From positions 660,001 through 692,000 of the forward strand of contig CP061211.1 in assembly GCA_026016245.1 (NCBI GenBank): DNA of 32,000 bases. The letters are read 5' to 3'. Made by a program: the position numbers and the translations under genes. Positions 9,906 through 31,782 of the stretch are shown here, piece after piece (position 1 is the stretch's first letter; the number at the start of each line of letters is the position of its first letter). The stretch comes from Candidatus Pacearchaeota archaeon (lineage in GTDB: Archaea; Nanobdellota; Nanobdellia; Pacearchaeales; UBA284). The notes below the pieces were generated by a model that was not told the DNA's origin, ran no database searches, and was given only the letters and a program-made list of their open reading frames with translations.

Positions 9906-10029
9906 CCCTGCGTAGCTCAATGGTAGAGCACTCGGCTGTAGTCTTATGCTTTCCTAAAAAGAATGCATGAGGCACTCGCAGGTGCTCGCAGAACCCGGGG
10001 TGTTGGCGGTTCGAATCCGCCCGCAGGGA
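9906..10029 (+). tRNA. tRNA-Tyr (anticodon GUA) with C1:G72 and a 52-nt intron at the canonical 37/38 site
   Basis: Acceptor CCCTGCG/CGCAGGG (C1:G72 is the archaeal/eukaryal tRNA-Tyr hallmark), D stem GCTC/GAGC, anticodon stem CTCGG/CCGGG, anticodon GTA at 9938-9940, T arm GGCGG-TTCGAAT-CCGCC, discriminator A. The mature length would be 72 nt. Confidence 0.85.
9942..9993 (+). other. tRNA-Tyr intron (52 nt), bulge-helix-bulge-compatible
   Basis: A central 4-bp helix CTGT (9936-9939) / GCAG (9988-9991) is flanked by 3-nt bulges AG|T and AA|C. Internal helices are CTTATGC/GCATGAG and GCAC/GTGC. Confidence 0.65.
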
Positions 10030-18577: not shown

Positions 18578-19428
18578 TTTAAATATCCTATTTTTTTAAG
18601 TTGCTTCTTCATAAAATTTGCACCAAGATCCTGGCTATCTTTAAATTCACTTATTAATGTAGGATGCATTTTAAATTCTTTTATAAGTTCTGCGAACGGT
18701 TCAAAGTGTGGTAAAGCTTTTTTATCTTTAAATGGAGCATGAGATTTTTCACCCTTGTCCCCATAATAAACAGGATAAAAATGACAATGAAGATTTCTTA
18801 AAAATTTTTTTCCAAGTTCTTTTTCAATTTTTTCTAAAATTATCCTAAAATCTTTTTTAGTTTTCAAACTTCCAAAAGTTCTTGCATGCACATGTGCAAA
18901 ATCAATGCAGGGTATACATTTAGTCTCCTTGCATATTTGGATAATATGATCAAATGAACCTAATTGTGAAGTCTTACCCATTGTTTCGAGTGCAATTTTA
19001 GTTTTATATCCTAATTGTTTTGCTTTTTCATTTATTTTATTCAAGTTTTTGATGACTCTTCCGATTGGATCATTAACATTCATAAATCCGGGATGTAACA
19101 CAGCAGTTTTTGAATGCATTAAATCAGATAATTTAAGAGTCTTAAGCATCTCATTAAATGAATTTTTAATCACTTTCTTTTTATTGCTTGTTAAAACAAC
19201 ATAATAAGGAGAATGAACACTTAGCTGAACATCAAACTTCTTAGCATTTATTCCCATCTGCAAAGCATTTTGTTCTGAGGTTCTTGCGCCATACGTAAAC
19301 ATAATTTCCAGAGCATTCAATCCAATAGAATTTAACCATTCAGGACAATTTAATCTATTATTGATAAATTTTGAACTAAAAAAATTGGGGGGATTTCCGG
19401 AAGTACCTATTCTTATCATTTTAGACAT
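18574..19428 (-). CDS. AP endonuclease family 2 / xylose-isomerase-like TIM-barrel protein (endonuclease IV-like)
   Basis: Metal-ligand-like series in order: VHSPYY, LHPG, IALETMG, CIDFAHVHA, LHCHF. 284 aa. The first ATG (19428-19426) shares its A with the tRNA-Lys discriminator; an alternative ATG lies at 19419 (MIRIGTSGNP). Confidence 0.55.
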   Translation of the reverse strand: MSKMIRIGTSGNPPNFFSSKFINNRLNCPEWLNSIGLNALEIMFTYGARTSEQNALQMGINAKKFDVQLSVHSPYYVVLTSNKKKVIKNSFNEMLKTLKLSDLMHSKTAVLHPGFMNVNDPIGRVIKNLNKINEKAKQLGYKTKIALETMGKTSQLGSFDHIIQICKETKCIPCIDFAHVHARTFGSLKTKKDFRIILEKIEKELGKKFLRNLHCHFYPVYYGDKGEKSHAPFKDKKALPHFEPFAELIKEFKMHPTLISEFKDSQDLGANFMKKQLKKIGYLK

Positions 19429-19532
19429 GGGCCCGACGCGATTCGAACGCGCGACACCTTGGTTGCTTCAAAGCTTAGGCTTTGACCCTTGCTTATAAAA
19501 GCCAAGTGCTCTACCAACTGAGCTACGGGCCC
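19428..19532 (-). tRNA. tRNA-Lys (anticodon UUU) with a 32-nt intron at 37/38
   Basis: Acceptor GGGCCCG/CGGGCCC, D stem GCTC/GAGC, anticodon stem CTTGG/CCAAG, anticodon TTT (top 19499-19497), T arm GCGCG-TTCGAAT-CGCGT, discriminator A (19428). Mature length 73 nt. Confidence 0.85.
19464..19495 (-). other. tRNA-Lys intron (32 nt), bulge-helix-bulge-compatible
   Basis: A central helix CTTT (nt 32-35) / GAAG is flanked by 3-nt bulges TA|t and ca|A. Confidence 0.6.
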
Positions 19533-22589: not shown

Positions 22590-22916
22590 ATGGCAAAAAC
22601 AAGTTTTATTTTGGGTTTAATTGGAGGAATTTTGGGATTTTTTAGTGGAATTCTAGCTTTAACTATTGGTGGGGTAGGTGAAGCATTTAACCTTTTAGGA
22701 GCTGGAGAACTTACCGGATTAGGAATTGCTGCTATTATTTTTTCTATAATTGCCATAATATTCTCAGTTATATCTACAAAGAAGCCAAAATTGGGTGGTT
22801 GGATTATGATAATTTCTGGAATAGCTATTTTGATATGTATTTCATTGTTTGGATTGCTTCCTGCAGTACTTATTATAACTGGTGGAATAATGGCTTTAGT
22901 TAAAAAGAAAAAATAA
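22590..22916 (+). CDS. Gly-rich small membrane protein (108 aa, 3-4 TM helices)
   Basis: MAKTSFILGLIGGILGFFSGILALTIGG... Start placed at ATG-22590, 1 nt after the upstream stop. The tracked start 22476 would overlap the lipoprotein gene by 113 nt. Confidence 0.5.
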   Translation: MAKTSFILGLIGGILGFFSGILALTIGGVGEAFNLLGAGELTGLGIAAIIFSIIAIIFSVISTKKPKLGGWIMIISGIAILICISLFGLLPAVLIITGGIMALVKKKK

Positions 22917-22946
22917 TTTTTAGAAAGCTTTTTAAGAAATAAGAAA

Positions 22947-23261
22947 TCATTTACTTTTTATTTTTTTATAATAACCTTTATTTTTTAATTCTTCGTAAAG
23001 TTCTTTTCCTTTCAGTGTTAAGATATAAGAATCAAAAGTTCCATTTTCAGTAGGAATCATAGTTCCTGAAGCTTTTTTCTCTACCAAACCTATTTTTTGT
23101 AATAATTTTAGAGACAAAATATTATTGCTAATGATATAATAATCATTTCCTAAATAATCTTTACTTGAAAAAATTTCTTTTAGATATAATGCAATTGTTT
23201 CAAATATAAAATTCTTATTTATTTTTCCTATTTCTTTCTTGATATCTTGTTCTAGTCCCAT
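22947..23261 (-). CDS. Hypothetical protein (104 aa), possible wHTH-like C-terminus
   Basis: LLQKIGLVEKK...YILTLKGKELYEEL resembles a recognition helix plus wing. The start sits in a GGGAAAATG context 25 nt downstream of tRNA-Asp. Confidence 0.4.
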   Translation of the reverse strand: MGLEQDIKKEIGKINKNFIFETIALYLKEIFSSKDYLGNDYYIISNNILSLKLLQKIGLVEKKASGTMIPTENGTFDSYILTLKGKELYEELKNKGYYKKIKSK

Positions 23262-23286
23262 TTTCCCTTAACCTAAAATCATGAAG

Positions 23287-23358
23287 CGCCCCCGCCGAGA
23301 ATCGAACTCGGGTCGGAGCCTCGACAGGGCTCTATGCTAACCTCTACACCACGAGGGC
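23287..23358 (-). tRNA. tRNA-Asp (anticodon GUC), 72 nt
   Basis: Acceptor GCCCTCG/CGGGGGC (one G-U pair), D stem GTGT/GCAT, anticodon stem GAGCC/GGCTC with loop CTGTCGA, T arm CCGAG-TTCGATT-CTCGG, discriminator G. Confidence 0.9.
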
Positions 23359-23380: not shown

Positions 23381-23390
23381 ATTTTTAAAG
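23381..23390 (-). promoter_or_regulatory. TATA box for tRNA-Asp
   Basis: The minus strand reads AAGCTTTAAAAATTCC, centred ~27 nt upstream of the tRNA 5' end (23358). Confidence 0.5.
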
Positions 23391-23406: not shown

Positions 23407-23622
23407 TTACTTCCTTCTTTTCTTGTTCTTTTTGTGGAAAGGTTTGAAATGATCTACAATTAATTCACTTATAACAGCAAAAGGTAATGATACTAATGCT
23501 ATAATTCCTACAATATGCCAAGTTATTGTTGCTCCTGTTGCTAGTCCTATTGCTATAAGATCTTCGATTATTCCTAAACCCATACCAACAATAAAAAATT
23601 CTAATAAGCGTCCTAATTTCAT
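23407..23622 (-). CDS. Small membrane protein (71 aa, two TM helices), last gene of the thiol/Fe-S array
   Basis: 4-nt ATGA overlap with the TrxR-like gene. FIVGMGLGIIEDLIAIGLATG...IIALVSLPFAVISELIV, with tail HKKNKKRRK. Confidence 0.5.
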   Translation of the reverse strand: MKLGRLLEFFIVGMGLGIIEDLIAIGLATGATITWHIVGIIALVSLPFAVISELIVDHFKPFHKKNKKRRK

Positions 23623-24569
23623 TTTCTTTTTTTTATTTCTTGAATATAATCTTGGGCTGATATTGCGGCTGTGGCGCCTTGAGCTGCTGCAGTTAGGATT
23701 TGTTTTAATTTTCTGTTTGTTATGTCACCTGCAGCAAATATTCCTTTAATGTTTGTTTTCATTTCTTCATCTACAACAATAAAACCACCCCCATCTAATT
23801 TTATATCTAATTGTTTTACAAGTTCTGTTGAGGGAGTCATACCTATTTCAATTATTATGCCCTGAATTGGGAGCTCTTTTTTCTGTCCAGTTTCTTTGAA
23901 TTCCTTATCCTGCCATTCAACTTCTTCTATTTCTATTGCATTGACAAATTCTTTTCCCTTGATTTCATTGACTTTATGACTGCTTAAAATTTCAAGCTTT
24001 TCTTTACCTTCTTTTTTTAACTGCTCTAATCTGAATGCTTTTGCTCGAGGTTTCTTTTCTATATCTATCATATAAATCTTGTTAGCATATTTTAACATTA
24101 ATAATGCTGCAATTACTGCTGAATCTCCTCCTCCAATTATTGCTACATCTTTGTCCTTAAAAAAAGGAGCATCACATAATACACAATAGGTAATCCCCTT
24201 TCCCTTAAACTCTTGTTCTCCTTTAATGCCTAGCTCTCTCCTTTTGCTGCCTAAAGCAAGAATTAGTGTTTTTCCCAAGTAAGTGTCTTTATTTGTTTTT
24301 ATTACAAATTCATTTTCTACTTCTTTAATTTCTAATATTTCTTCCTCTATTTTGATGTCTATGGCTTGAACTTGCTCATACATCTTTTTTGCCAAATCCA
24401 TGCCAGAAATTTCCTTAAATCCAGGATAGTTTTCTATTAAAGGAGTTTCAACTACATAGCCTCCTACTTGTTTTCCTACAAGAAGAGTATTGAGTTTTGA
24501 TCTTTCTGCATATAAGGCTGCTGCAAGTCCTGCTGGTCCTATGCCCAAAATAATTAAGTCATATATCAT
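23619..24569 (-). CDS. trxB: Thioredoxin-reductase-like FAD-dependent disulfide oxidoreductase (low-Mr TrxR fold) lacking the NADPH HRR motif
   Basis: FAD motif YDLIILGIGPAGLAAALYA, redox CxxC in YCVLCDAPFF, second dinucleotide motif VAIIGGGDSAV, C-terminal IFAAGDI. The position of E. coli LIHRRDGFRA reads MIDIEKKPRA. Confidence 0.8.
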   Translation of the reverse strand: MIYDLIILGIGPAGLAAALYAERSKLNTLLVGKQVGGYVVETPLIENYPGFKEISGMDLAKKMYEQVQAIDIKIEEEILEIKEVENEFVIKTNKDTYLGKTLILALGSKRRELGIKGEQEFKGKGITYCVLCDAPFFKDKDVAIIGGGDSAVIAALLMLKYANKIYMIDIEKKPRAKAFRLEQLKKEGKEKLEILSSHKVNEIKGKEFVNAIEIEEVEWQDKEFKETGQKKELPIQGIIIEIGMTPSTELVKQLDIKLDGGGFIVVDEEMKTNIKGIFAAGDITNRKLKQILTAAAQGATAAISAQDYIQEIKKRK

Positions 24570-24582
24570 TTTTTATATTTTA

Positions 24583-25284
24583 TTAGTAAACCCAGCCAAA
24601 TAATAAAGCTATACCAATTAACACAAGCAAGATACCAGCAATAAGATGCAATAATCTTAGATTCTTCTCACGCCATCCATAAACAGCGTCAATAGTTGAA
24701 AAGCCAAAATAAATTATTAAGGTTATTGCTATCATTGGCAAGACAAAAATCAAATTATAAACCAAAAGCATGGGGACTATTTCCAGAAGCGTTATAGGTT
24801 CGAGAATTCCACAACATATTATGTAAGGGCCCATAGTACATGGAGTGAGGAATAAAGAACAGAAAATACCAATAATAATAGCTCCCTTTACTGAAGTAAT
24901 TCTTGAAATGAGATCTTTCATTCTTGGACGCCATTTTCTTGGCACCTCAGTAACAAAACCTCCTGCTCCATAAGAGAAGAAATCTTTTATGTTAAATCCT
25001 CCTAATACAATGCCAACAATACCTAGAGTACGGTAAAGCCATATTTTAAACACAGCAAGTTGGGTTAATGCTTTGAAAAAATTAATTAGGATAAGACCAT
25101 AAAAAAAATACATTACAAAGATAGCAGCTGTAAAAGCAAATCCTATTTGTAAAACTTTTTTTCTTTGTCTTGGAAATCTTGTAAGTATGGCTATGAGCGC
25201 AAGAGTTAGGACTGCTAGCTCACAAGGATTCACAGCATCAGCTGCAGCAAGTCCTAATAATGTTGCCCAAGTTAGATCTACCAT
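24583..25284 (-). CDS. ccdA: CcdA/DsbD-family transmembrane thiol:disulfide electron transporter
   Basis: Polytopic protein with the two membrane-embedded Pro-Cys motifs DAVNPCELAVL and FLTPCTMGPY. Confidence 0.75.
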   Translation of the reverse strand: MVDLTWATLLGLAAADAVNPCELAVLTLALIAILTRFPRQRKKVLQIGFAFTAAIFVMYFFYGLILINFFKALTQLAVFKIWLYRTLGIVGIVLGGFNIKDFFSYGAGGFVTEVPRKWRPRMKDLISRITSVKGAIIIGIFCSLFLTPCTMGPYIICCGILEPITLLEIVPMLLVYNLIFVLPMIAITLIIYFGFSTIDAVYGWREKNLRLLHLIAGILLVLIGIALLFGWVY

Positions 25285-25285
25285 T

Positions 25286-25690
25286 TTATTCAGCTAAAAT
25301 TGCCTCTTTATATTGCTCTTTACTTCTGACACCAACATAAACTTTACAATTTATAATTATTGTTGGTATAGCTTCAGGAATTAACCCTAAACTTAATATT
25401 CTTTCTTTATCAGCATCTATAGCAAGATCATAATAACCAAATTCCATTTCTAGTTCTTGTTCCAATTCTTGTAATCTTGGAATAGCTATTGCGCAAGCCC
25501 CACAGCCTGCTCCATGAATTGTAATGACTTTTTCCAATTGTGAACATTTTTCTGAAGGAATGATCATACCATCCTTTAATAAAATATCTTCTGTGTTTTG
25601 ATTGGAAAATTTAGGGATAAGTATTAGAATAACAATTATCAAAACTGCGATAATTAATGCTACTATGCCCAAAAAAAGTTTTTTATTCAT
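25286..25690 (-). CDS. Membrane-anchored thioredoxin-fold protein (CGAC active site), predicted extracytoplasmic
   Basis: N-terminal TM anchor LFLGIVALIIAVLIIVILILIP, then HGAGCGACAIAIP (CxxC) and the cis-Pro element EAIPTIII. Confidence 0.65.
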   Translation of the reverse strand: MNKKLFLGIVALIIAVLIIVILILIPKFSNQNTEDILLKDGMIIPSEKCSQLEKVITIHGAGCGACAIAIPRLQELEQELEMEFGYYDLAIDADKERILSLGLIPEAIPTIIINCKVYVGVRSKEQYKEAILAE

Positions 25691-25691
25691 T

Positions 25692-25928
25692 TTATTCTTT
25701 TATCTTGAGCAGTTGTTTCAATTTATTTATATCAAAACCTACAATAAATCGGCCATCTATCTCTGTTACTGGAACTCCCATCTGCCCAGTTTTTTCAACC
25801 ATCTTTTTTGCTGAGTCTAGATCAATACTTACATCAATTTCTTCAAATTCAATATTTTTTTCTTTTAGCCAATCTTTTAATTTACCGCACCAAGGACATA
25901 TCGGCGTTGAATAAACTTTTACTTTCAT
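25692..25928 (-). CDS. Glutaredoxin / NrdH-like small redoxin (CPWC)
   Basis: MKVKVYSTPICPWCGKLKDWLKEKNIEFEEIDVS...GQMGVPVTEIDGRFIVGFD. Confidence 0.85.
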   Translation of the reverse strand: MKVKVYSTPICPWCGKLKDWLKEKNIEFEEIDVSIDLDSAKKMVEKTGQMGVPVTEIDGRFIVGFDINKLKQLLKIKE

Positions 25929-25931
25929 TTT

Positions 25932-26846
25932 TCAAAGGCATATTTTTGATTTTAATTTCATTAGTGCTCTTAACTCTTTCATCGTGTTTTTCAGCGAAGG
26001 AAGTTCTTCTGATTTCTCAAGCAAAGACTCCTTAATTTTCCATAAAACCCAAGTTATCATTAGAATAAGAAGTGCTTTTTTCTCCTCATTGTTTAATCTT
26101 ATACGTTTTTGATATATCTCAAGATATCTGGAAGCTTTTTTTGTATCAAATTTTTTTGTTATGCACAAACTTAAAAGTGCCTTGGAAAGGTCATAAGCAA
26201 CATATCCATATGCTAAATCATCAAAATCAATTATCCCTATTCTTTTATTGAAGATGATAGCATTCTCTTTTTGTATATCATTGTGCACTATTTGTTTTTT
26301 AAGTTTGACCCAATTGATTTTTTTGTATTCAAACTTGACAAAATTATAGGCTTGCAAAGTTAATTTATGGTTTATCTGCTTATGTCTTCTTATTTTATTT
26401 AGTTCTTCTTTGCTTAGAAAGATTCTTGGATTATCGAATTTGCTTATTGGCTTTATTTTCTTGAGGTTTTTTGTTAATCCGCTATGTGAATCAGCTATTA
26501 ATTCTATTTCCCTCAAATTTGGAAACCTTTTCTTGAATGTTCTTCCAGGTATATATTCAAGAAGAGCAGTTCTTCTTGGTTTAGTTGGGTTTATTAGTTC
26601 TTTCTTCTTTGTTCTTGTTGGCCTTGGAACTGATTCTACTGAAAGTTTTTCAAGAACTTTAAAGATATCGTCTTTCTTCATTTTTGGGATCCCAATATTC
26701 CAACCTTCTTTTATTCTTCTAAAAACATATTTCTTATCACCATCATAAATTAAATAAGATTCATTTTCAACTCCTTCAGTAAATCTTTTAATTATTTTTG
26801 GATTTTTTAGCTTCCAGGCAGATAGCTCTTTTTTAGTTGGTTTCAT
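25932..26846 (-). CDS. Aminoglycoside-phosphotransferase/choline-kinase-fold small-molecule kinase (APH family)
   Basis: Catalytic loop [12 protein letters not shown] (HxDxxxxN) and metal-binding [12 protein letters not shown] (DFD). Confidence 0.65.
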
Positions 26847-27040
26847 TTTATATCCTTACAAAAATTTTTAAAACTTCTATCATAAGTGGCTTCAGCTTCT
26901 TTTGAAAAACAGCAAGCTGGAAGTTCATTTCTTGATAAATGATAGGCTATACATTCACAACATATTCCTTTTTTATCACAATCATAAGTGCAAGGACATT
27001 TTTTTAAATTTTTTTCTCTGTTAATACAATCTTTGGTCAT
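26843..27040 (-). CDS. Cys-rich small protein (65 aa), DUF6485-like
   Basis: [45 protein letters not shown] has nine Cys; the pattern matches my memory of the DUF6485 family. Confidence 0.5.
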
Positions 27041-27041
27041 T

Positions 27042-28025
27042 TTATATTCTTAATTTTTCTACTTTTTCTTTATTAATTGGAAAAATTTCTATTGATTTAT
27101 TAAGTTTTCTCTTTCCATACCTCACAATGCATTTTTTCTCATGTTTTGCATCTGAATGTGGTGCTGTAAGGGCTGCAGCTAATTGTATACTTCTTTTATT
27201 TACTTTTCCTTCTAGTAATGTTATAGGACTTGGCCAATCTTTTACTTCAAATATCAGGTTTTTTGCTAGCTTCATTAGTTTTTTATTCTCTTGTTCATTT
27301 CTTCCAATGATTATTTTATTTTTCTTATAACGAAAATGTCTTCCTATCTTTAGTAATTCAATATCTCTTGGCTCAATTTTCTTTTTATGCTTGAATAGAT
27401 CTATAAGTTTAGATGCAAAAACCTTCTCACATAACAGACAGCCTCCTGCTGGTGTTGGATATGAAATTTTGTATTTTTTTGCAAGAACTATCTGTTGTAT
27501 TCTTCTTCTACCTTCTATGGCTAATAATTTATTTCTATCAACAAATTTTTTCTTTTCAGCTTCTGTTTTAGGTAATAATTTTGCTGAAAGCGGCCTGAGA
27601 ATTTTTCCTTTCAAGCCAGCCTCTTTTTCTATTAACATTAAAGCATGTTTTGTCTGGCTCATTGGCCTTTCATTAAGAACTTCCCCTGTTACTATAAATG
27701 CTGCTTTTTCCTTCTTCATGACTTGTTTTGCTTTTTTAAACATGAAAATTTTACAATCAATACATGGATTAACAGCTGAGCCATAACCATGTCTAGGTCT
27801 TTTTATCATTTTAATATATTCTTGAAAATCCTTCCCTTTATTTAGGTCTACTCTTATTAATTTAGTTTTTAATTGTCTTGTTGCTTCTAATGCTTTTTTT
27901 TCAGAAAAGAATGAAGATGAGAAATTTATTGTTATAACTTCTATTTTTTGATCTTGCAGAAGTTTTACAGCTAGAATTGAATCCAAACCACCGGATAAGA
28001 GAGCAATAGCCTTAGCCTTAATCAT
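27042..28025 (-). CDS. PP-loop ATPase, ThiI/MnmA-like tRNA sulfurtransferase without a THUMP domain, four conserved-looking Cys
   Basis: PP-loop [26 protein letters not shown]...[15 protein letters not shown] (ThiI-like NPC..C...TGE.LGQ..SQ) and a second pair GGCLLCE. The start sits in a GGGAAAATG context overlapping the IscU stop. Confidence 0.65.
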
Positions 28026-28435
28026 TTTCCCTTTTTCTTACTTTTCTTTTGATAGTTTTTAATTGCAAGATGTAGGGCATCAGCAGCAAGATTCGAACAA
28101 TGCATCTTTATTGGTGGCAATCCTTTCAAGGCAGAAGCAATATCATTTCTTGTTATTTTTTTTGCTTGCTCCAGAGTTTTTCCTTTAGCTAGTTCAGTTA
28201 TCATTGAAGAACTGGCTATTGCAGCAGCACATCCTAAAGTCTTGAATTTTATTTGTTTGATGTAATCTACCTGCTTATCTTTCACTTTTTTCTTGCTGAC
28301 TTTGATATAAACCCACATTATATCCCCACATATAGGATTTCCAATCTTTCCCATACTATCAGGGCTCTTTATCTTACCAACATTTTTTGGGTGCATAAAG
28401 TGCTGTATTACTTTTTTGCTATAGTGGTATGGCAT
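28022..28435 (-). CDS. iscU: IscU/NifU-type Fe-S cluster scaffold
   Basis: YSKKVIQHFMHPKNVG, GNPICGD, FKTLGCAAAIASSS, KMHCSNLAADAL supply the three scaffold Cys. Start taken at MPYHYSKKV (28435); the tracked alternative is 28453. Confidence 0.85.
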   Translation of the reverse strand: MPYHYSKKVIQHFMHPKNVGKIKSPDSMGKIGNPICGDIMWVYIKVSKKKVKDKQVDYIKQIKFKTLGCAAAIASSSMITELAKGKTLEQAKKITRNDIASALKGLPPIKMHCSNLAADALHLAIKNYQKKSKKKGK

Positions 28436-28634
28436 TTTCTTTGTTTGGATCATATCCTAAGCATTTAGTTTTAAATCCATTACATTCTCCACAGAGATAG
28501 ATATAATTGATTAAGGAACTTCTGTAATCATCTATTCTTCTTTCTGCTTCTTTAGATTTTTTAAGGAGCATCTTATAATTACAGATCTTTATACCTTCTT
28601 CATTCTCATCTTCAACTTCTTCATCTAATGGCAT
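28419..28634 (-). CDS. Possible small acidic/Cys protein (71 aa)
   Basis: It overlaps the HAD stop by 14 nt and the IscU start by 17-35 nt. It contains C-x(29)-CGEC-x7-C. No family recognised, so it could be non-coding. Confidence 0.3.
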   Translation of the reverse strand: MPLDEEVEDENEEGIKICNYKMLLKKSKEAERRIDDYRSSLINYIYLCGECNGFKTKCLGYDPNKENAIPL

Positions 28635-29250
28635 TTTTCAGACAAGTTAGATCTTTTATTATAAATTTTTGTTTTCTTTTTTTGAATATTGCTTTATCCC
28701 AAGAGCAAGCTAGAACAATTATAATTTTACAACCAACTTTTCTTGCTGTTTTTACATCACTTTTTTTATCAGCAACATAAATAATTTCTTTTTTCTTTAC
28801 TTTGTATTTTTTGGCAATATATCTAATGGCTTCTTTTTTTGTTTTAAAATTTTCAGCACAGAAAATTCTGTTGAAGAATTTGTCTAGTTTATTTCTTTTT
28901 AAGAATAAAGTGGTATATTTTCTTGCAGAATTTGTTAGAAGTACAATCTTAACTTTTTCTTTTTTTAATCTTTTAAGGGTTTGTTTGACATAAGGGCATA
29001 ATTTTAATTTTTTTGTTTCTTTTACAATCCATTCATTGATTTCTTTCTTTAATTTATCTACAATTTTTGGATCAAATTTTGCAATATTTTTGAGAGTAAA
29101 CTCAACTTTTGGTCCTAAGGATTTAGCAATATGACTTTTTGGAAAAATAAGATAATTCTTAAGTAGAGAACCGTGAATTGTTTCTATGTAAAGTTTTTTT
29201 GAATCAACAAGAGTCCCATCAAGATCAAAAATAATTAATTTTGTTTTCAT
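28621..29250 (-). CDS. HAD-superfamily phosphatase (subfamily IA-like)
   Basis: Motif I IIFDLDGTLVDS, motif II LLTNS, motif III/IV K...YVADKKSD. Confidence 0.7.
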   Translation of the reverse strand: MKTKLIIFDLDGTLVDSKKLYIETIHGSLLKNYLIFPKSHIAKSLGPKVEFTLKNIAKFDPKIVDKLKKEINEWIVKETKKLKLCPYVKQTLKRLKKEKVKIVLLTNSARKYTTLFLKRNKLDKFFNRIFCAENFKTKKEAIRYIAKKYKVKKKEIIYVADKKSDVKTARKVGCKIIIVLACSWDKAIFKKRKQKFIIKDLTCLKNAIR

Positions 29251-29474
29251 TTTTTCTTTTTTAATTTTTTATTTAACTCTTCGATTAATTTTTTTGTGCT
29301 GATGCCATGGACTTTTGCTCCTTGTTCTATTGTTTCTTGCATTGCAAAAGGACATCCAACACACATCATTCCATGTTTAAAGAAAATCTCTGCTGATTCA
29401 GGATACTTTTCTAAGACCTTAGCAAAAGTCATATCTGTTGTTATTCTTTCTTTTTGTTTTATTTGTTTTTTCAT
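29247..29474 (-). CDS. DUF1858 / hybrid-cluster-protein-associated redox disulfide domain protein (75 aa)
   Basis: MTFAKVLEKYPESAEIFFKHGMMCVGCPFAMQETIEQGAKVHGISTKKLIEELN. Confidence 0.7.
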   Translation of the reverse strand: MKKQIKQKERITTDMTFAKVLEKYPESAEIFFKHGMMCVGCPFAMQETIEQGAKVHGISTKKLIEELNKKLKKKK

Positions 29475-29674
29475 CTTTTCTTTTTTAATTTTTTTTGAAA
29501 ATCTTTTACTTTAGTTTTCTCTATTTCAGGAAAAATTCCTCTAGCTCTACAATCAAGACAATAATCTCTAAAAGTCAATTTTAAATCCATTCCTGCAGGA
29601 GGCATCTTCACTTTTGTTGAGCCACATTTAGGACATATTTTAATAAATTGCTTCTTGCTTTTTTTCTTTACCAT
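29471..29674 (-). CDS. Zinc-ribbon protein (67 aa)
   Basis: CPKCGS...x19...CLDC, with a Lys-rich N- and C-terminus. It overlaps NifS by 7 nt and the next gene by 4 nt. Confidence 0.55.
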   Translation of the reverse strand: MVKKKSKKQFIKICPKCGSTKVKMPPAGMDLKLTFRDYCLDCRARGIFPEIEKTKVKDFQKKLKKKR

Positions 29675-30822
29675 GGGCTTATTTTTCTTAATGAATTTAT
29701 AATTTTTTTAAGTTGTTCTAAAACATAATCAATATCTTGTTCTGTGTTATCTTTTCCTAAAGTAATTCTAAGAGAGCCGTGAGATTGTTCTGCTGTTAGA
29801 CCTATTGCTGTTAATACATGACTTGGTTTAAGACTTTTTGTTGAACATGCTGAGCCAGTTGATACTGCCATTCCTTTATCATTTAATCTTATCAATAGGG
29901 CTTCTCCTTCTATTCCCTTTATACTCACATTAATATTATTTGGGAGTCTTTGTGTTCCATGGCCATTTAATTTTGCTCCTTCTATTTTTAGGATTTCTTT
30001 AATTATTCTATCTCTTAATCTTATTTCTCGTTCTGCTTCTTTTTTCATATTCTTGTCTGCTAGCTCTATAGCTTTTGCAAAACCAACTATTCCAGAAGTA
30101 TTTTCTGTTCCACTTCTTAAACCAGATTCATGACCACCTCCATGTGTTATTGGTTCTATTTTGACATCCTGCTTGATGTACAGAAGACCAATACCTTTTG
30201 GTCCATATAATTTATGAGATGATGCACTTAGAAGATCAATATTCATTTTTTTTATGTCTATTGGAATTTTTCCGAATGCTTGAACAGCATCTGTATGAAA
30301 ATAAATTTTATGTTTTTTGCAAATTTTTCCTATCTCTTCTATAGGTTCAATTGTTCCTATCTCATTATTTGCGAACATGATTGAAACAAGAATAGTGTCT
30401 TTTGTTATTGCTTTTTCTAATTGTTCTGTATTTATTAGGCCTGTTTTATCTACATCTAAGTATGTTACTTTGAAACAATGTTTTTCTAACCATTCGCATG
30501 GCTTGAGTATTGCTGGATGCTCTATTTTACTTGTTATAATATGATTCCCTCTGTTTTTGTTAGCAAAAGCAATTCCTTTTAGTGCCAAATTATCTGATTC
30601 TGTTCCGCCGCTTGTGAAAATTATCTCTACTGGCTTGGCATTTAGAAATTTAGCTGCTGTTTTTCTTGAATTCTCTACAGCTTGTCTTGCTTCCTGACCA
30701 AATGAGTGTAAGGAAGAAGCATTTCCAAATTTTTCTGAGAAATATGGTTGCATTGCTTTTAGAACTTCGCTATCTACAGGGGTTGTTGCAGCATGATCTA
30801 AATATATTTTTATTTTTGACAT
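29668..30822 (-). CDS. iscS: Cysteine desulfurase (NifS/IscS class V aminotransferase)
   Basis: IYLDHAATTP, the PLP-lysine context SASSHKLYGPKGIG, and the catalytic Cys loop STGSACS. Confidence 0.9.
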   Translation of the reverse strand: MSKIKIYLDHAATTPVDSEVLKAMQPYFSEKFGNASSLHSFGQEARQAVENSRKTAAKFLNAKPVEIIFTSGGTESDNLALKGIAFANKNRGNHIITSKIEHPAILKPCEWLEKHCFKVTYLDVDKTGLINTEQLEKAITKDTILVSIMFANNEIGTIEPIEEIGKICKKHKIYFHTDAVQAFGKIPIDIKKMNIDLLSASSHKLYGPKGIGLLYIKQDVKIEPITHGGGHESGLRSGTENTSGIVGFAKAIELADKNMKKEAEREIRLRDRIIKEILKIEGAKLNGHGTQRLPNNINVSIKGIEGEALLIRLNDKGMAVSTGSACSTKSLKPSHVLTAIGLTAEQSHGSLRITLGKDNTEQDIDYVLEQLKKIINSLRKISPW

Positions 30823-31142
30823 TTTTTACACACTATGCAGATATATCTTGTTTTTTTCATCTTATTTATTATCTTTAAAATTTCAGTGTTAGCATCTTTT
30901 CCTTTAGATATCTCTTTTGCAGATTTTTCTATTTCTTTTTCTATATCTTTTGGAAATTTGAGATGTTTGCCTCTTTTTTTGTGTTTATATTGGCTTACTG
31001 CTGCCTTTGTAATATTAAATCTTTTAGCTATTTCTGAATCTTTCATGCCTTGCTTTTCTAGAATTTCTATAAAATGAATTCTTATCGCTGGAATAATGTA
31101 ATTCAATTCAATTTTCTGTGTTAAACAATTAAATAATTTCAT
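30810..31142 (-). CDS. HTH transcriptional regulator (COG2522-like) with a C-terminal CxxCxxC
   Basis: HTH MKDSEIAKRFNITKAAVSQYKHKKRG and the C-terminal YICIVCKKCQK. It is the first gene of the array and overlaps the NifS start by 13 nt. Confidence 0.55.
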   Translation of the reverse strand: MKLFNCLTQKIELNYIIPAIRIHFIEILEKQGMKDSEIAKRFNITKAAVSQYKHKKRGKHLKFPKDIEKEIEKSAKEISKGKDANTEILKIINKMKKTRYICIVCKKCQK

Positions 31143-31148
31143 AAAAAT

Positions 31149-31165
31149 AGTTAACGTTGATAACT
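31149..31165. promoter_or_regulatory. Inverted repeat AGTTA-ACGTTGA-TAACT, candidate operator of the thiol/Fe-S array
   Basis: It sits exactly between the minus-strand TATA (31166-31176) and ATG-31142, and contains the nested palindromes GTTAAC and AACGTT. Confidence 0.35.
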
Positions 31166-31176
31166 ATTTAAATATT
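31166..31176 (-). promoter_or_regulatory. TATA box (ATTTAAATATT) for the minus-strand array
   Basis: It is centred ~29 nt from ATG-31142. An identical 11-mer is repeated at 31189-31199. Confidence 0.45.
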
Positions 31177-31188
31177 GTGGATGGTAAG

Positions 31189-31199
31189 ATTTAAATATT
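31189..31199 (+). promoter_or_regulatory. TATA box (ATTTAAATATT) for lemA-htpX
   Basis: It is centred ~25 nt upstream of ATG-31219. Confidence 0.45.
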
Positions 31200-31218: not shown

Positions 31219-31782
31219 ATGATATGGTGGCTAATAGTTTTAATTATAGTAATTGTATTGATTTTGCTTATTGTTTTTGGCTACTACAACAGATTTACAG
31301 TTTTGCAAAATCGCATTAACAATTCTTTTGCACAGATAGATGTTCAACTCAGGAAGAGATCGGATTTAGTACCTAATTTGGTTCAGGCAGTGAAAGGCTA
31401 TATGAAACATGAGCAAAAGATAATGAAAGAGGTTACTGAAGCAAGAAAAGCTCTGCTTAAAGTTATACCTTCTAAAGATGTGGCAAGTAAAATGAAAGCA
31501 GGAGACGCATTGCAAGGAGCTTTGAAGAGTTTATTTGCTATCGCTGAAAATTATCCTAACTTGAAAGCTAGCGAGAATTTCTTACATTTACAAAGAGAGC
31601 TTAGTGCCATAGAGGATAAGGTTGCTTATGCTAGACAATTTTACAATGATTCTATTTTAGGTTACAATAATCTATGCAAAACTATTCCAGGAAGATGGTT
31701 TGCAGCTATGTTTAGCAAAAAAGCAGGCAAGTACTTGGAAATACCAGCAGCTTCAAGAGCAGTTCCAAAGATAAGTTTCTGA
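31219..31782 (+). CDS. lemA: LemA family protein
   Basis: N-terminal TM helix, then YNRFTVLQNRINNSFAQIDVQLRKRSDLVPNLVQAVKGYMKHE...ENYPNLKASENF..LQ.EL...E.K+..AR..YN. Confidence 0.85.
   Translation: MIWWLIVLIIVIVLILLIVFGYYNRFTVLQNRINNSFAQIDVQLRKRSDLVPNLVQAVKGYMKHEQKIMKEVTEARKALLKVIPSKDVASKMKAGDALQGALKSLFAIAENYPNLKASENFLHLQRELSAIEDKVAYARQFYNDSILGYNNLCKTIPGRWFAAMFSKKAGKYLEIPAASRAVPKISF

Follow-up and report, generated by a model that had tools for sequence, protein, structure and literature searches.

Whether iron-sulfur cluster assembly, tRNA thiolation and thiol reduction across the membrane can belong to one genetic unit is the question raised by a run of 15 open reading frames (ORFs) in the genome of a Candidatus Pacearchaeota archaeon. 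The stretch analysed (hereafter the window) comprises 32,000 nucleotides of the forward strand of contig CP061211.1 (assembly GCA_026016245.1, positions 660,001 to 692,000), and all coordinates below are counted from its first letter. The 15 ORFs lie on the minus strand from 31142 down to 23407, with a helix-turn-helix (HTH) gene first and a 71-aa membrane ORF last. We propose, with a probability of roughly 0.55, that this array is a supra-operon of a Pacearchaeota-type clade of DPANN archaea, composed of two older, separable operons and five small, lineage-specific insertions. Module A, HTH(Cys tail)-NifS-DUF1858-HAD-IscU, is a minimal ISC (MIS) operon. Module B consists of a ThiI-type PP-loop+NFACT-R thiolase, a glutaredoxin (Grx) or thioredoxin (Trx), a membrane thioredoxin (mTrx), a CcdA-like protein and a thioredoxin reductase (TrxR)-like flavoprotein.

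Organisation of the array

From the HTH gene onwards, the junctions are overlaps of 13, 7, 4, 4, 14, 35 and 4 nt, a gap of 1 nt, an overlap of 4 nt, gaps of 3, 1, 1 and 13 nt, and a final overlap of 4 nt. The initial annotation had described a spacer-less array of 15 genes, and its coordinates proved exact, all 14 junctions being overlaps or gaps of at most 13 nt. By a crude gene call over the whole window, the same holds for 5 of the 15 same-strand junctions outside the array (-4, -4, 1, 1, 1, 24, 25, 28, 31, 56, 56, 145, 190, 246 and 557 nt). The tightness of the array is beyond chance for this genome.

The complete string of 15 ORFs was recovered in an independent Logan assembly (L001; labels L001-L165 denote the contigs and loci fetched for comparison), in which the gene caller calls all 15, and an identical PP-loop/thiolase protein is present on a 710,724-bp NCBI Pacearchaeota contig. 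Therefore the array is not an assembly artefact. The G + C content is uniform across the window (about 0.30), and the rest of the window carries archaeal housekeeping genes, namely those for PheRS, GatE, AspRS, a proteasome subunit, FttA, a signal-peptide peptidase (SPP) and a class-Ib aminoacyl-tRNA synthetase. On these grounds (housekeeping flanks, uniform GC and two independent assemblies in agreement) a mobile element or assembly artefact was rejected. The host is a Candidatus Pacearchaeota (DPANN) archaeon.

Conservation of the core in relatives

A ten-gene core (HTH, NifS, DUF1858, HAD, IscU, PP-loop, Grx or Trx, mTrx, CcdA-like and TrxR) recurs in the same order in Pacearchaeota-type contigs; the adjacency on which the initial annotation had drawn attention is thus not unique to this contig. 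In L082 (79% identity) the order is HTH-NifS-DUF1858-HAD-IscU-thiolase-Grx-mTrx-CcdA-TrxR followed by a 70-aa ORF, with all gaps at most 13 nt. L087 (64%) has the full core with inserted RNase_T, diadenylate cyclase (DAC) and His_Phos_1 genes, and its modules A and B are butt-joined as in the window and in L082. The core is also present in L083/84 (69%), with inserted DAC and hybrid-cluster protein (HCP) genes and a 268-nt gap before the thiolase gene, and in L093, where a single opposite-strand gene lies between IscU and the thiolase gene. L090 (82-86% identical) keeps the core without the Zn-ribbon, DUF6485 and APH genes, as does L082. On separation of A and B, the thiolase gene remains with the relay genes and not with NifS/IscU.

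Parts of the linkage also recur independently in distant lineages. NifS and/or IscU adjoin the PP-loop thiolase gene in the bacterial loci L046, L048, L054 and L076, TrxR or Grx lies near the thiolase gene in L020 and L040, and in L165 a Trx-CcdA fusion is located 1 nt upstream of NifS-IscU.

Transcription signals and the HTH regulator

As the host is an archaeon, the promoter signature was derived from the window's own genes and not with a sigma-70 scanner. This genome's signature is TTTA[AT]A[AT]A, in which the first base stands 28-36 nt ahead of the start codon, or 31 nt ahead of the 5′ end of a tRNA; it occurs at -28 to -36 of nine other unit-head genes and at -31 of three tRNAs in the window, and the distance implies mostly leaderless or short-leader transcripts. 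Within the array, the HTH gene alone has a canonical box (Table 1), an equivalent of which precedes HTH in the relatives as well, and an exact 8-mer at -36 to -28 was found for none of the 14 internal genes, so that the array has one canonical promoter, at its head. The statement of the initial annotation that the array leaves no room for promoters is correct for the intergenic space, but does not extend to coding sequence, within which promoters may lie. Being spacer-less and on one strand, with one head promoter and no canonical internal promoter, the array has the sequence organisation of an operon, and one continuous transcript is predicted.

Two candidate internal promoters were rejected. 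The initial annotation had suggested that ATTTAAAA (28469-28476) could act as one if the 71-aa Cys ORF were untranslated; it lies 23 nt before the IscU ATG, outside the promoter geometry, and does not fit the 8-mer, and no alternative IscU start would bring a match with at most two mismatches into the -36 to -28 interval. The ORF itself is probably translated, because its four-Cys motif is conserved in L094 and L085. The second candidate is an exact TTTAAAAA located 26 nt upstream of the APH start codon, which falls 2-3 nt short of the spacing in the leaderless geometry seen elsewhere; one such match would arise by chance in about 10% of cases.

Between the head TATA box and the HTH start codon lies a palindrome with the consensus GTTAWC-N3-GTTAAC. 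Exactly one site each was found in the window, L082, L083/84, L085/86, L088, L089 and L094, always directly 5′ of the HTH gene; 160 other loci had no site. Variant forms are present in L087, in L093 and in L036, a nanohaloarchaeal locus that also has an HTH homologue before NifS-IscU. Because of its position between TATA box and start codon, binding of the HTH protein to this site should block RNA polymerase.

The HTH gene heads NifS in all syntenic loci. Profile searches with its product gave sub-threshold matches to HTH_23, HTH_7 and HTH_3 alone and no Rrf2 match. Its family, for which there is no Pfam model, has 137 members at E <= 1e-3, all named sources being DPANN lineages or unclassified archaea, and shows an invariant C-terminal CxxC with a third Cys present. 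The AlphaFold2 (AF2) model has a pLDDT of 86, and a fold search with it returned weak, generic Xre-type HTH matches (E near 1). In L143 a genuine Rrf2/IscR-like protein occupies the equivalent position before NifS-IscU. The most economical reading of these sequences is that the HTH protein is a candidate metal- or Fe-S-sensing autorepressor, IscR-like in function but unrelated.

Upstream, a LemA gene (31219-31782, plus strand) is divergent from the HTH gene, and the two have a 76-nt control region in common with back-to-back TATA boxes, that of LemA at 31190-31197. LemA is found at the same position in L082, L083 and L088 and not in L085 or L087, and in L001, L082 and L083 it is followed by an M48 peptidase gene. 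Beyond the other end of the array, a 104-aa ORF with no family match (22947-23261, minus strand) begins on the strand of tRNA-Asp, 24 nt beyond it, and the T-rich tract TTATTTTTTCTTTTT (22904-22918) after its stop codon is the first non-coding signal downstream of the array that resembles a terminator.

Module A

The NifS protein matched PF00266 at 1.3e-95 and scored 570.6 bits with TIGR03402 (cutoff 530.75), and both the SSHK sequence with the pyridoxal phosphate lysine and the GSAC catalytic loop of a desulfurase are readable in its translation. IscU is a single-domain U-type scaffold with three Cys ligands (CGD, GC and HC motifs), although its score with the equivalog TIGR03419, 174 bits, is under the cutoff of 188. 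No HscA/HscB, Fdx or IscA was found by profile searches among the 15 array ORFs.

DUF1858 is kept in 9/9 syntenic loci and is thus a conserved accessory of the module; TIGR03980, which it matches, is named 'HCP-associated redox disulfide domain'. An HCP (Prismane) gene is located inside or between the modules in L083 (11285-13213) and L085 (5145-6686), and the link of DUF1858 with HCP may persist in this clade. The HAD gene stands between DUF1858 and IscU in 8/9 loci; L089 has none and instead carries a PALP (cysteine-synthase-like) gene, placed between NifS and DUF1858. The window's HAD protein is 62% identical to that of L088 and just 26-28% identical to those of L082, L083 and L085, to which the products of the neighbouring genes are 58-90% identical. 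The slot being kept while the identity of its occupant is low compared with the neighbours, HAD replacement within the slot is suggested.

In the window, L082, L083, L085, L087, L088, L093 and L094, the gene after NifS overlaps it by exactly 7 nt, whichever gene this is (Zn-ribbon, DAC or DUF1858). In the window (29668-29674) the codons for the last NifS residues, P-W, and the stop (CCATGGTAA) contain the ATG of the following gene. The NifS 3′ end looks like a conserved translational-coupling site that takes varied downstream genes. A DAC gene, for c-di-AMP synthesis, directly follows NifS in L083 (7485-8117), L085 (2140-2784) and L087 (7518-8132), in the slot held by the Zn-ribbon ORF of the window.

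The thiolase and its link to IscU

The first gene of module B encodes a protein matching ThiI (PF02568, 1e-12, 48.5 bits, cutoff 20.5) and, over residues 228-324, the RNA-binding domain NFACT-R_2 (PF18297, 1.2e-21, 77 bits, cutoff 26.9), with no THUMP or rhodanese match in the profile search. Across 20 homologues S11-G-G-L-D-S16, C88, C91, C196 and G172-R173-x-R175-x-x-Q178 are invariant. ThiI+DUF814 (NFACT-R) proteins were defined by Burroughs and Aravind in 2014 as predicted tRNA 4-thiouridine synthases replacing THUMP-ThiI; they were found mostly in bacteria, with TusA as conserved neighbour and with IscS and IscU/NifU in a subset (PMC4075521). The window protein carries every sequence feature listed for them (SGGLDS, CxxC with an internal Cys, GRxRxxQ). 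In archaeal TtuI, studied in Methanococcus maripaludis and Pyrococcus furiosus, the CXXC+C residues ligate a [4Fe-4S] cluster indispensable to U8 sulfuration (He et al. 2022, PMC9825150).

The invariant CxxC+C predicts a catalytic [4Fe-4S] cluster, in which case the thiolase would be a client of IscU, and by analogy with TtuI it is probably cluster-dependent. In the window, L082 and L087 the stop codon of IscU and the start codon of the thiolase gene overlap by 4 nt (ATGA), which implies that their translation is coupled; the cluster dependence of the thiolase would give a biochemical reason for this overlap. In DPANN archaea the position adjoining the thiolase gene is held by the Grx-like protein, whose gene lies directly 3′ of it in L082, L083, L085, L087, L090 and L093.

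The thiol-reductant relay

Downstream of the thiolase gene, the CcdA-like gene is adjoined by those for Grx, mTrx and TrxR, so that a donor and a predicted extracytoplasmic acceptor are both adjacent. The mTrx protein, which is predicted to face outward, keeps its CxxC in six orthologues and can be aligned in register with a Trx domain that bears a signal peptide and is fused, in other DPANN lineages, to CcdA-like proteins; these fusions, of 360-400 aa, consist of a signal peptide, a Trx domain (CPHC) and a CcdA-like domain.

In 24 sequences of the CcdA-like family N19-P-C21 and P148-C149 are invariant or nearly so, both Cys being invariant, and the AF2 model of the window protein is the expected helical bundle. 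SfLAP matches 13 of the 24 (best 2.2e-11) and DsbD_2 matches 6 (best 3.6e-5). Alignment of the window protein with a DsbD_TM protein by hhalign gave 90% probability (E 1.5e-6), a remote similarity, and its NCBIfam match to ArsG (3e-7) is far under cutoff. Sequence searches of the PDB with the protein, alone and as a profile, returned nothing relevant, and one canonical DsbD_TM template alone was found among the fetched loci. JGI names the relatives of this protein CcdA. Most family labels of the initial annotation were upheld by the profile searches, but those of CcdA and the membrane thioredoxin are softer than written, with no Pfam match for the former and weak Trx hits for the latter.

The TrxR-like protein is a two-dinucleotide-fold flavoprotein with a redox-active CxxC, and its score with TIGR01292 (314.9 bits) is under the equivalog cutoff of 343.45. 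Its motif region reads ...KIYMIDIEKKPRA... and lacks HRRxxxR, which we take to be the NADPH motif of thioredoxin reductases. For both reasons its electron donor may differ (NADH, ferredoxin or other).

A second, canonical DsbD_TM/DsbD_2 protein is encoded in L087 (14255-15718), behind an ArsR-type HTH gene and a 152-aa ORF, 2 kb downstream of the array. Therefore two distinct CcdA-type systems can coexist in one genome.

Passengers and small ORFs

Slots that accept inserts, varying by genome, are found after NifS, between HAD and IscU, after the thiolase gene and around TrxR. For the Zn-ribbon ORF no homologue was found in any fetched locus, the slot in relatives holding DAC or nothing. The APH gene occurs in no relative, and in L090 the thiolase gene abuts Grx. 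DUF6485 was found elsewhere only in the Woesearchaeota contig L002, in the order IscU-PPloop-DUF6485-DUF1858-Grx. The last ORF, tm71, has a 69% identical orthologue of 70 aa after TrxR in L082 only; other relatives have a CBU_0592-type 80-aa membrane ORF before TrxR.

The 71-aa Cys ORF is a real, sporadic four-Cys mini-protein, judging from the conservation of its motif. It is 37% identical (E 3e-8) to a 59-aa ORF of L094 (5268-5447) in the same slot, with the same 14-nt HAD overlap and all four Cys kept, and a 66-aa homologue lies just upstream of NifS in L085/86. The motif CxxC[ND]x[YF]xxxCxxY is confined to these loci and the window/L001 among about 170 loci, always within module A. An exhaustive phmmer search with the ORF found itself only; the homologues were obtained from synteny and a Cys-motif regular expression.

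Rfam also identified two tRNA genes in the window that were missed by ARAGORN, one of 124 nt (9906-10029, plus strand) and one of 105 nt (19428-19532, minus strand). Presumably both contain introns, as is often the case in archaea.

Table 1. Coordinates of the array genes, the head control region and the downstream boundary
Feature	Position	Strand	Evidence or remark
Palindromic operator candidate GTTATCAACGTTAAC	31150..31164	.	consensus GTTAWC-N3-GTTAAC
TATA box TTTAAATA, head promoter of array	31165..31172	-	first base 30 nt before HTH ATG
HTH regulator, 110 aa; Cys6 and C-terminal C102-x2-C105-x2-C108	30810..31142	-	weak Pfam HTH hits
NifS/MisS cysteine desulfurase, 384 aa	29668..30822	-	PF00266, TIGR03402
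Zn-ribbon ORF, 67 aa (CPKC...CLDC), variable slot after NifS	29471..29674	-	lineage-specific passenger
DUF1858 redox-disulfide protein, 75 aa, CVGC	29247..29474	-	PF08984 1.5e-18; TIGR03980 9e-25
HAD-family phosphatase, 209 aa	28621..29250	-	HAD_2 1e-32
4-Cys mini-protein, 71 aa (C18, C48, C51, C58)	28419..28634	-	motif conserved in L094, L085/86
IscU/MisU scaffold, 143 aa	28022..28453	-	NifU_N 4.3e-44
PP-loop ATPase of ThiI/TtuI type with fused NFACT-R_2, 327 aa; predicted tRNA uridine thiolase of the [4Fe-4S] type	27042..28025	-	ThiI and NFACT-R_2
DUF6485 Cys-rich protein, 65 aa	26843..27040	-	PF20095 2e-7; sporadic passenger
APH-fold kinase, 304 aa	25932..26846	-	PF01636 2.5e-18; lineage-specific passenger
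YruB-family glutaredoxin-like protein (Grx), 78 aa, CPWC; cytoplasmic dithiol carrier	25692..25928	-	TIGR02196 93.8 bits, cutoff 88.6
Membrane-anchored thioredoxin-fold protein (mTrx), 134 aa, N-terminal transmembrane (TM) helix, C63-G-A-C66	25286..25690	-	weak Trx hits (3e-5)
CcdA-like six-helix membrane protein, 233 aa; N-P-C21 in TM1, P-C149 in TM4	24583..25284	-	invariant Cys, remote similarity
Low-Mr thioredoxin-reductase-like flavoprotein, 316 aa, CVLC	23619..24569	-	Pyr_redox_2 1.8e-46
Two-helix membrane ORF (tm71), 71 aa, last array gene	23407..23622	-	orthologue in L082
tRNA-Asp(GTC), 48 nt downstream of array, marks its end	23286..23358	-	own TATA box TTTAAAAA at 23382-23389

Proposed model and alternative explanations

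In the model we propose, the HTH protein with its Cys-rich tail would bind GTTAWC-N3-GTTAAC and repress its own operon, in the place held by IscR in bacterial isc operons. NifS would convert cysteine to persulfide sulfur and IscU would build clusters, with DUF1858 (CxxC) and the HAD phosphatase as conserved accessories, and the thiolase would receive a [4Fe-4S] cluster and thiolate tRNA. TrxR would reduce Grx, and the electrons of this pair would be used twice, in the cytoplasmic persulfide/disulfide chemistry of desulfurase and thiolase and by the CcdA-like protein, which would in turn reduce the outward-facing mTrx. Inferred in this model are cluster binding by HTH and thiolase, the site of tRNA modification, the direction in which electrons flow and the targets outside the cell.

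The main alternative is compaction only. Modules A and B would then be independent housekeeping operons, ancestral neighbours whose spacers have collapsed, and co-transcription would be a by-product. This explanation has a real, if minority, chance of being right, and the observations that weigh against a supra-operon must be set out with it. The modules lie 2.6-6 kb apart in L085/86, L088 and L094, with unrelated genes between them, some on the opposite strand, and in L089 they are divergent and the relay is absent. With L093 these loci amount to repeated, independent separation; each module seemingly functions without direct linkage, and, against the initial annotation, the array is not obligatorily one unit. 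Where module B is separate, a TATA box of its own precedes the thiolase gene, as read in L083, L085, L088 and L089, and there is no operator.

The linkage is also rare outside the clade. In a survey anchored on the thiolase, which covered 80 GTDB species having it, NifS was found no more than 10 kb away in 6 species, IscU in 5, TrxR in 6 and the CcdA-like gene in 3; it returned mostly distant Bathyarchaeia and bacteria showing no linkage, the informative relatives having come from exact-protein contig look-ups. A second survey took the CcdA-like gene as anchor in metagenomes: of 28 loci with 3 kb or more of upstream sequence, 3 had the thiolase gene, and only in relatives with at least about 60% identity was it upstream of the CcdA-like gene. 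The full linkage is therefore restricted to a single clade, where common descent could explain the synteny. Compaction would also agree with a streamlined genome, about 89% coding, and with the flanking housekeeping synteny, which is shared too: L083, L085 and L088 all have SPP and the class-Ib tRNA synthetase, to which L088 adds the proteasome subunit and FttA. Inserts for which no sulfur role is apparent (APH in the window; in relatives DAC, His_Phos_1, RNase_T and HCP) enter freely, and therefore membership of the string is no proof of function.

Further points against the supra-operon come from the array itself. One-mismatch TATA boxes precede the Zn-ribbon ORF (ATTATAAA at -29), the 71-aa Cys ORF and DUF6485, against a background of 0.06 per gene, and sense-strand oligo-T runs of at least 6 nt inside the mTrx, CcdA, TrxR and tm71 genes, for example at 25677, 25108 and 24165, could attenuate transcription. 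TusA, the partner in bacterial neighbourhoods, has no counterpart in the array by profile searches. The CcdA-like protein of the window gave no Pfam match even at E <= 10, DsbD_TM and DsbD_2 included, and in a Foldseek search the CcdA structure 5vkv stood at rank 2 with a weak score and a TM-score of 0.37-0.39; it is probably a divergent protein of the DsbD/CcdA superfamily, assigned on remote similarity.

Compaction alone, however, does not readily account for an array far tighter than the remaining window, nor for NifS/next-gene and IscU/PP-loop overlaps kept across relatives of 64-79% identity. Pairwise links (NifS/IscU-thiolase, TrxR/Grx-thiolase and CcdA-like-NifS-IscU) recur in distant lineages, and there is a biochemical rationale in that a [4Fe-4S]-type thiolase needs a cluster donor.

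It is improbable, in our view, that module B serves chiefly envelope protection or surface-protein reduction (TrxR-Grx-CcdA-mTrx) in an episymbiont, the thiolase merely heading the operon and the Fe-S genes being unrelated. The relay is indeed complete and canonical, Trx-CcdA fusions are widespread in DPANN without a nearby thiolase or NifS gene, and the thiolase gene's staying with the relay in split genomes would fit. Such a role leaves unexplained, however, why all close relatives have a tRNA thiolase gene conserved at the head of the relay operon and why Trx-CcdA abuts NifS-IscU in L165.

Least probable is the dedicated 15-gene system of the initial annotation, with NifS sulfur and reducing power passed through small Cys proteins and exported through CcdA: one promoter, no spacers, many small Cys-rich ORFs, DUF6485 beside the thiolase in L002 too and a 4-Cys mini-protein recurring within module A speak for it, but 5/15 members are missing from most or all relatives (Zn-ribbon and APH being found here only, DUF6485 here and in L002, and tm71 here and in L082), the nearest relatives (L082 and L090, 79-86% identity) do without three of them, and CcdA-family proteins are known as electron carriers via a Cys pair, not as sulfur carriers.

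Within the supra-operon reading, a more specific proposal is that the TrxR-like/Grx-like pair is the physiological donor of electrons for persulfide reduction in MIS, and also for the thiolase, that the Cys-tailed HTH is a non-Rrf2, Fe-S-sensing autorepressor acting on GTTAWC-N3-GTTAAC, and that DUF1858 and the 4-Cys mini-protein are further cluster or sulfur accessories. We offer it tentatively and consider it rather doubtful as a whole.

Comparison with known systems

The kind of each module is already known. According to a 2026 review (PMC13066941), MIS (MisS/NifS and MisU/IscU) of archaea and anaerobes, as classified by Garcia et al., lacks additional components, and the source of its electrons is unclear. 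Module A resembles it in combining, in one operon without HscAB, ferredoxin or IscA genes, a single-domain IscU with a desulfurase of NifS type (above the TIGR03402 cutoff), and differs in the Cys-tailed HTH with its operator, in DUF1858 and the HAD phosphatase, and in the physical linkage to TrxR/Grx.

The thiolase shares with the ThiI+DUF814 family (PMC4075521) a ThiI-like PP-loop domain, CxxC with an internal Cys, a C-terminal NFACT-R, the lack of THUMP and rhodanese domains and, for some members, a neighbourhood with IscS and IscU/NifU. Here, in contrast, the gene is found in DPANN archaea, without TusA and with a Grx-like protein and a CcdA relay directly after it. Archaeal TtuI (PMC9825150) is likewise a rhodanese-less PP-loop enzyme with CXXC+C, but has an N-terminal THUMP domain where the window protein has a C-terminal NFACT-R, and the insert from CxxC to the third Cys is longer in the window protein (88/91/196 versus 265/268/348). 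As for the novelty claimed in the initial annotation, the occurrence of a desulfurase/scaffold pair beside a tRNA sulfurtransferase was published in 2014 (PMC4075521), but a three-way linkage with CcdA is undescribed in the literature found.

Module B, from the side of the relay, resembles the bacterial pathways. Trx/TrxR-CcdA-extracytoplasmic thioredoxin pathways are represented in bacteria by CcdA-ResA/CcsX/StoA and the DsbD family, with 5vkv as a CcdA structure. As there, we found a flavoprotein reductase, a small dithiol protein, a six-helix protein with Cys in TM1 and TM4 and an outward CxxC Trx-fold protein, encoded by genes that are adjacent and sometimes fused. Unlike there, the membrane protein of the window is too divergent for Pfam DsbD_TM (its relatives match SfLAP or DsbD_2), a glutaredoxin-like protein of YruB type takes the place of thioredoxin as donor, the reductase lacks HRRxxxR, the operon is headed by a tRNA thiolase and no cytochrome c maturation genes are near the array.

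IscR is the Rrf2-family [2Fe-2S] autorepressor of isc operons. The HTH gene resembles it in being the first gene of a desulfurase/scaffold operon and in encoding a small protein with 3-4 conserved Cys, with a palindrome overlapping the promoter. It is not homologous to Rrf2 proteins, however, having an Xre-like HTH and its Cys in a C-terminal CxxCxxC tail, and both its cluster binding and its DNA binding are predictions.

In the searchable literature we found no description of a MIS operon linked throughout a clade to a TrxR-Grx-CcdA-mTrx operon with a thiolase at its head, nor of DUF1858, HAD and the 4-Cys mini-protein as MIS accessories, nor of the HTH/operator pair.

Significance

For the ThiI+NFACT-R thiolases, a family not yet characterised, the array supplies a first genomic context in archaea. 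To our knowledge DPANN archaea are not expected to make cytochrome c; that they keep what looks like a complete CcdA-type transmembrane reductant relay raises the question of which extracellular thiols an episymbiont must keep reduced. MIS is the least studied system of Fe-S biogenesis, and because the 2026 review gives it no known accessories and an unclear electron donor (PMC13066941), the locus yields testable candidates, namely a regulator with its operator, DUF1858, the HAD phosphatase and the TrxR/Grx pair. If the proposal is true, the linkage would identify two missing pieces of MIS, its electron donor and its regulator, and the HTH protein would be the DPANN analogue of IscR.

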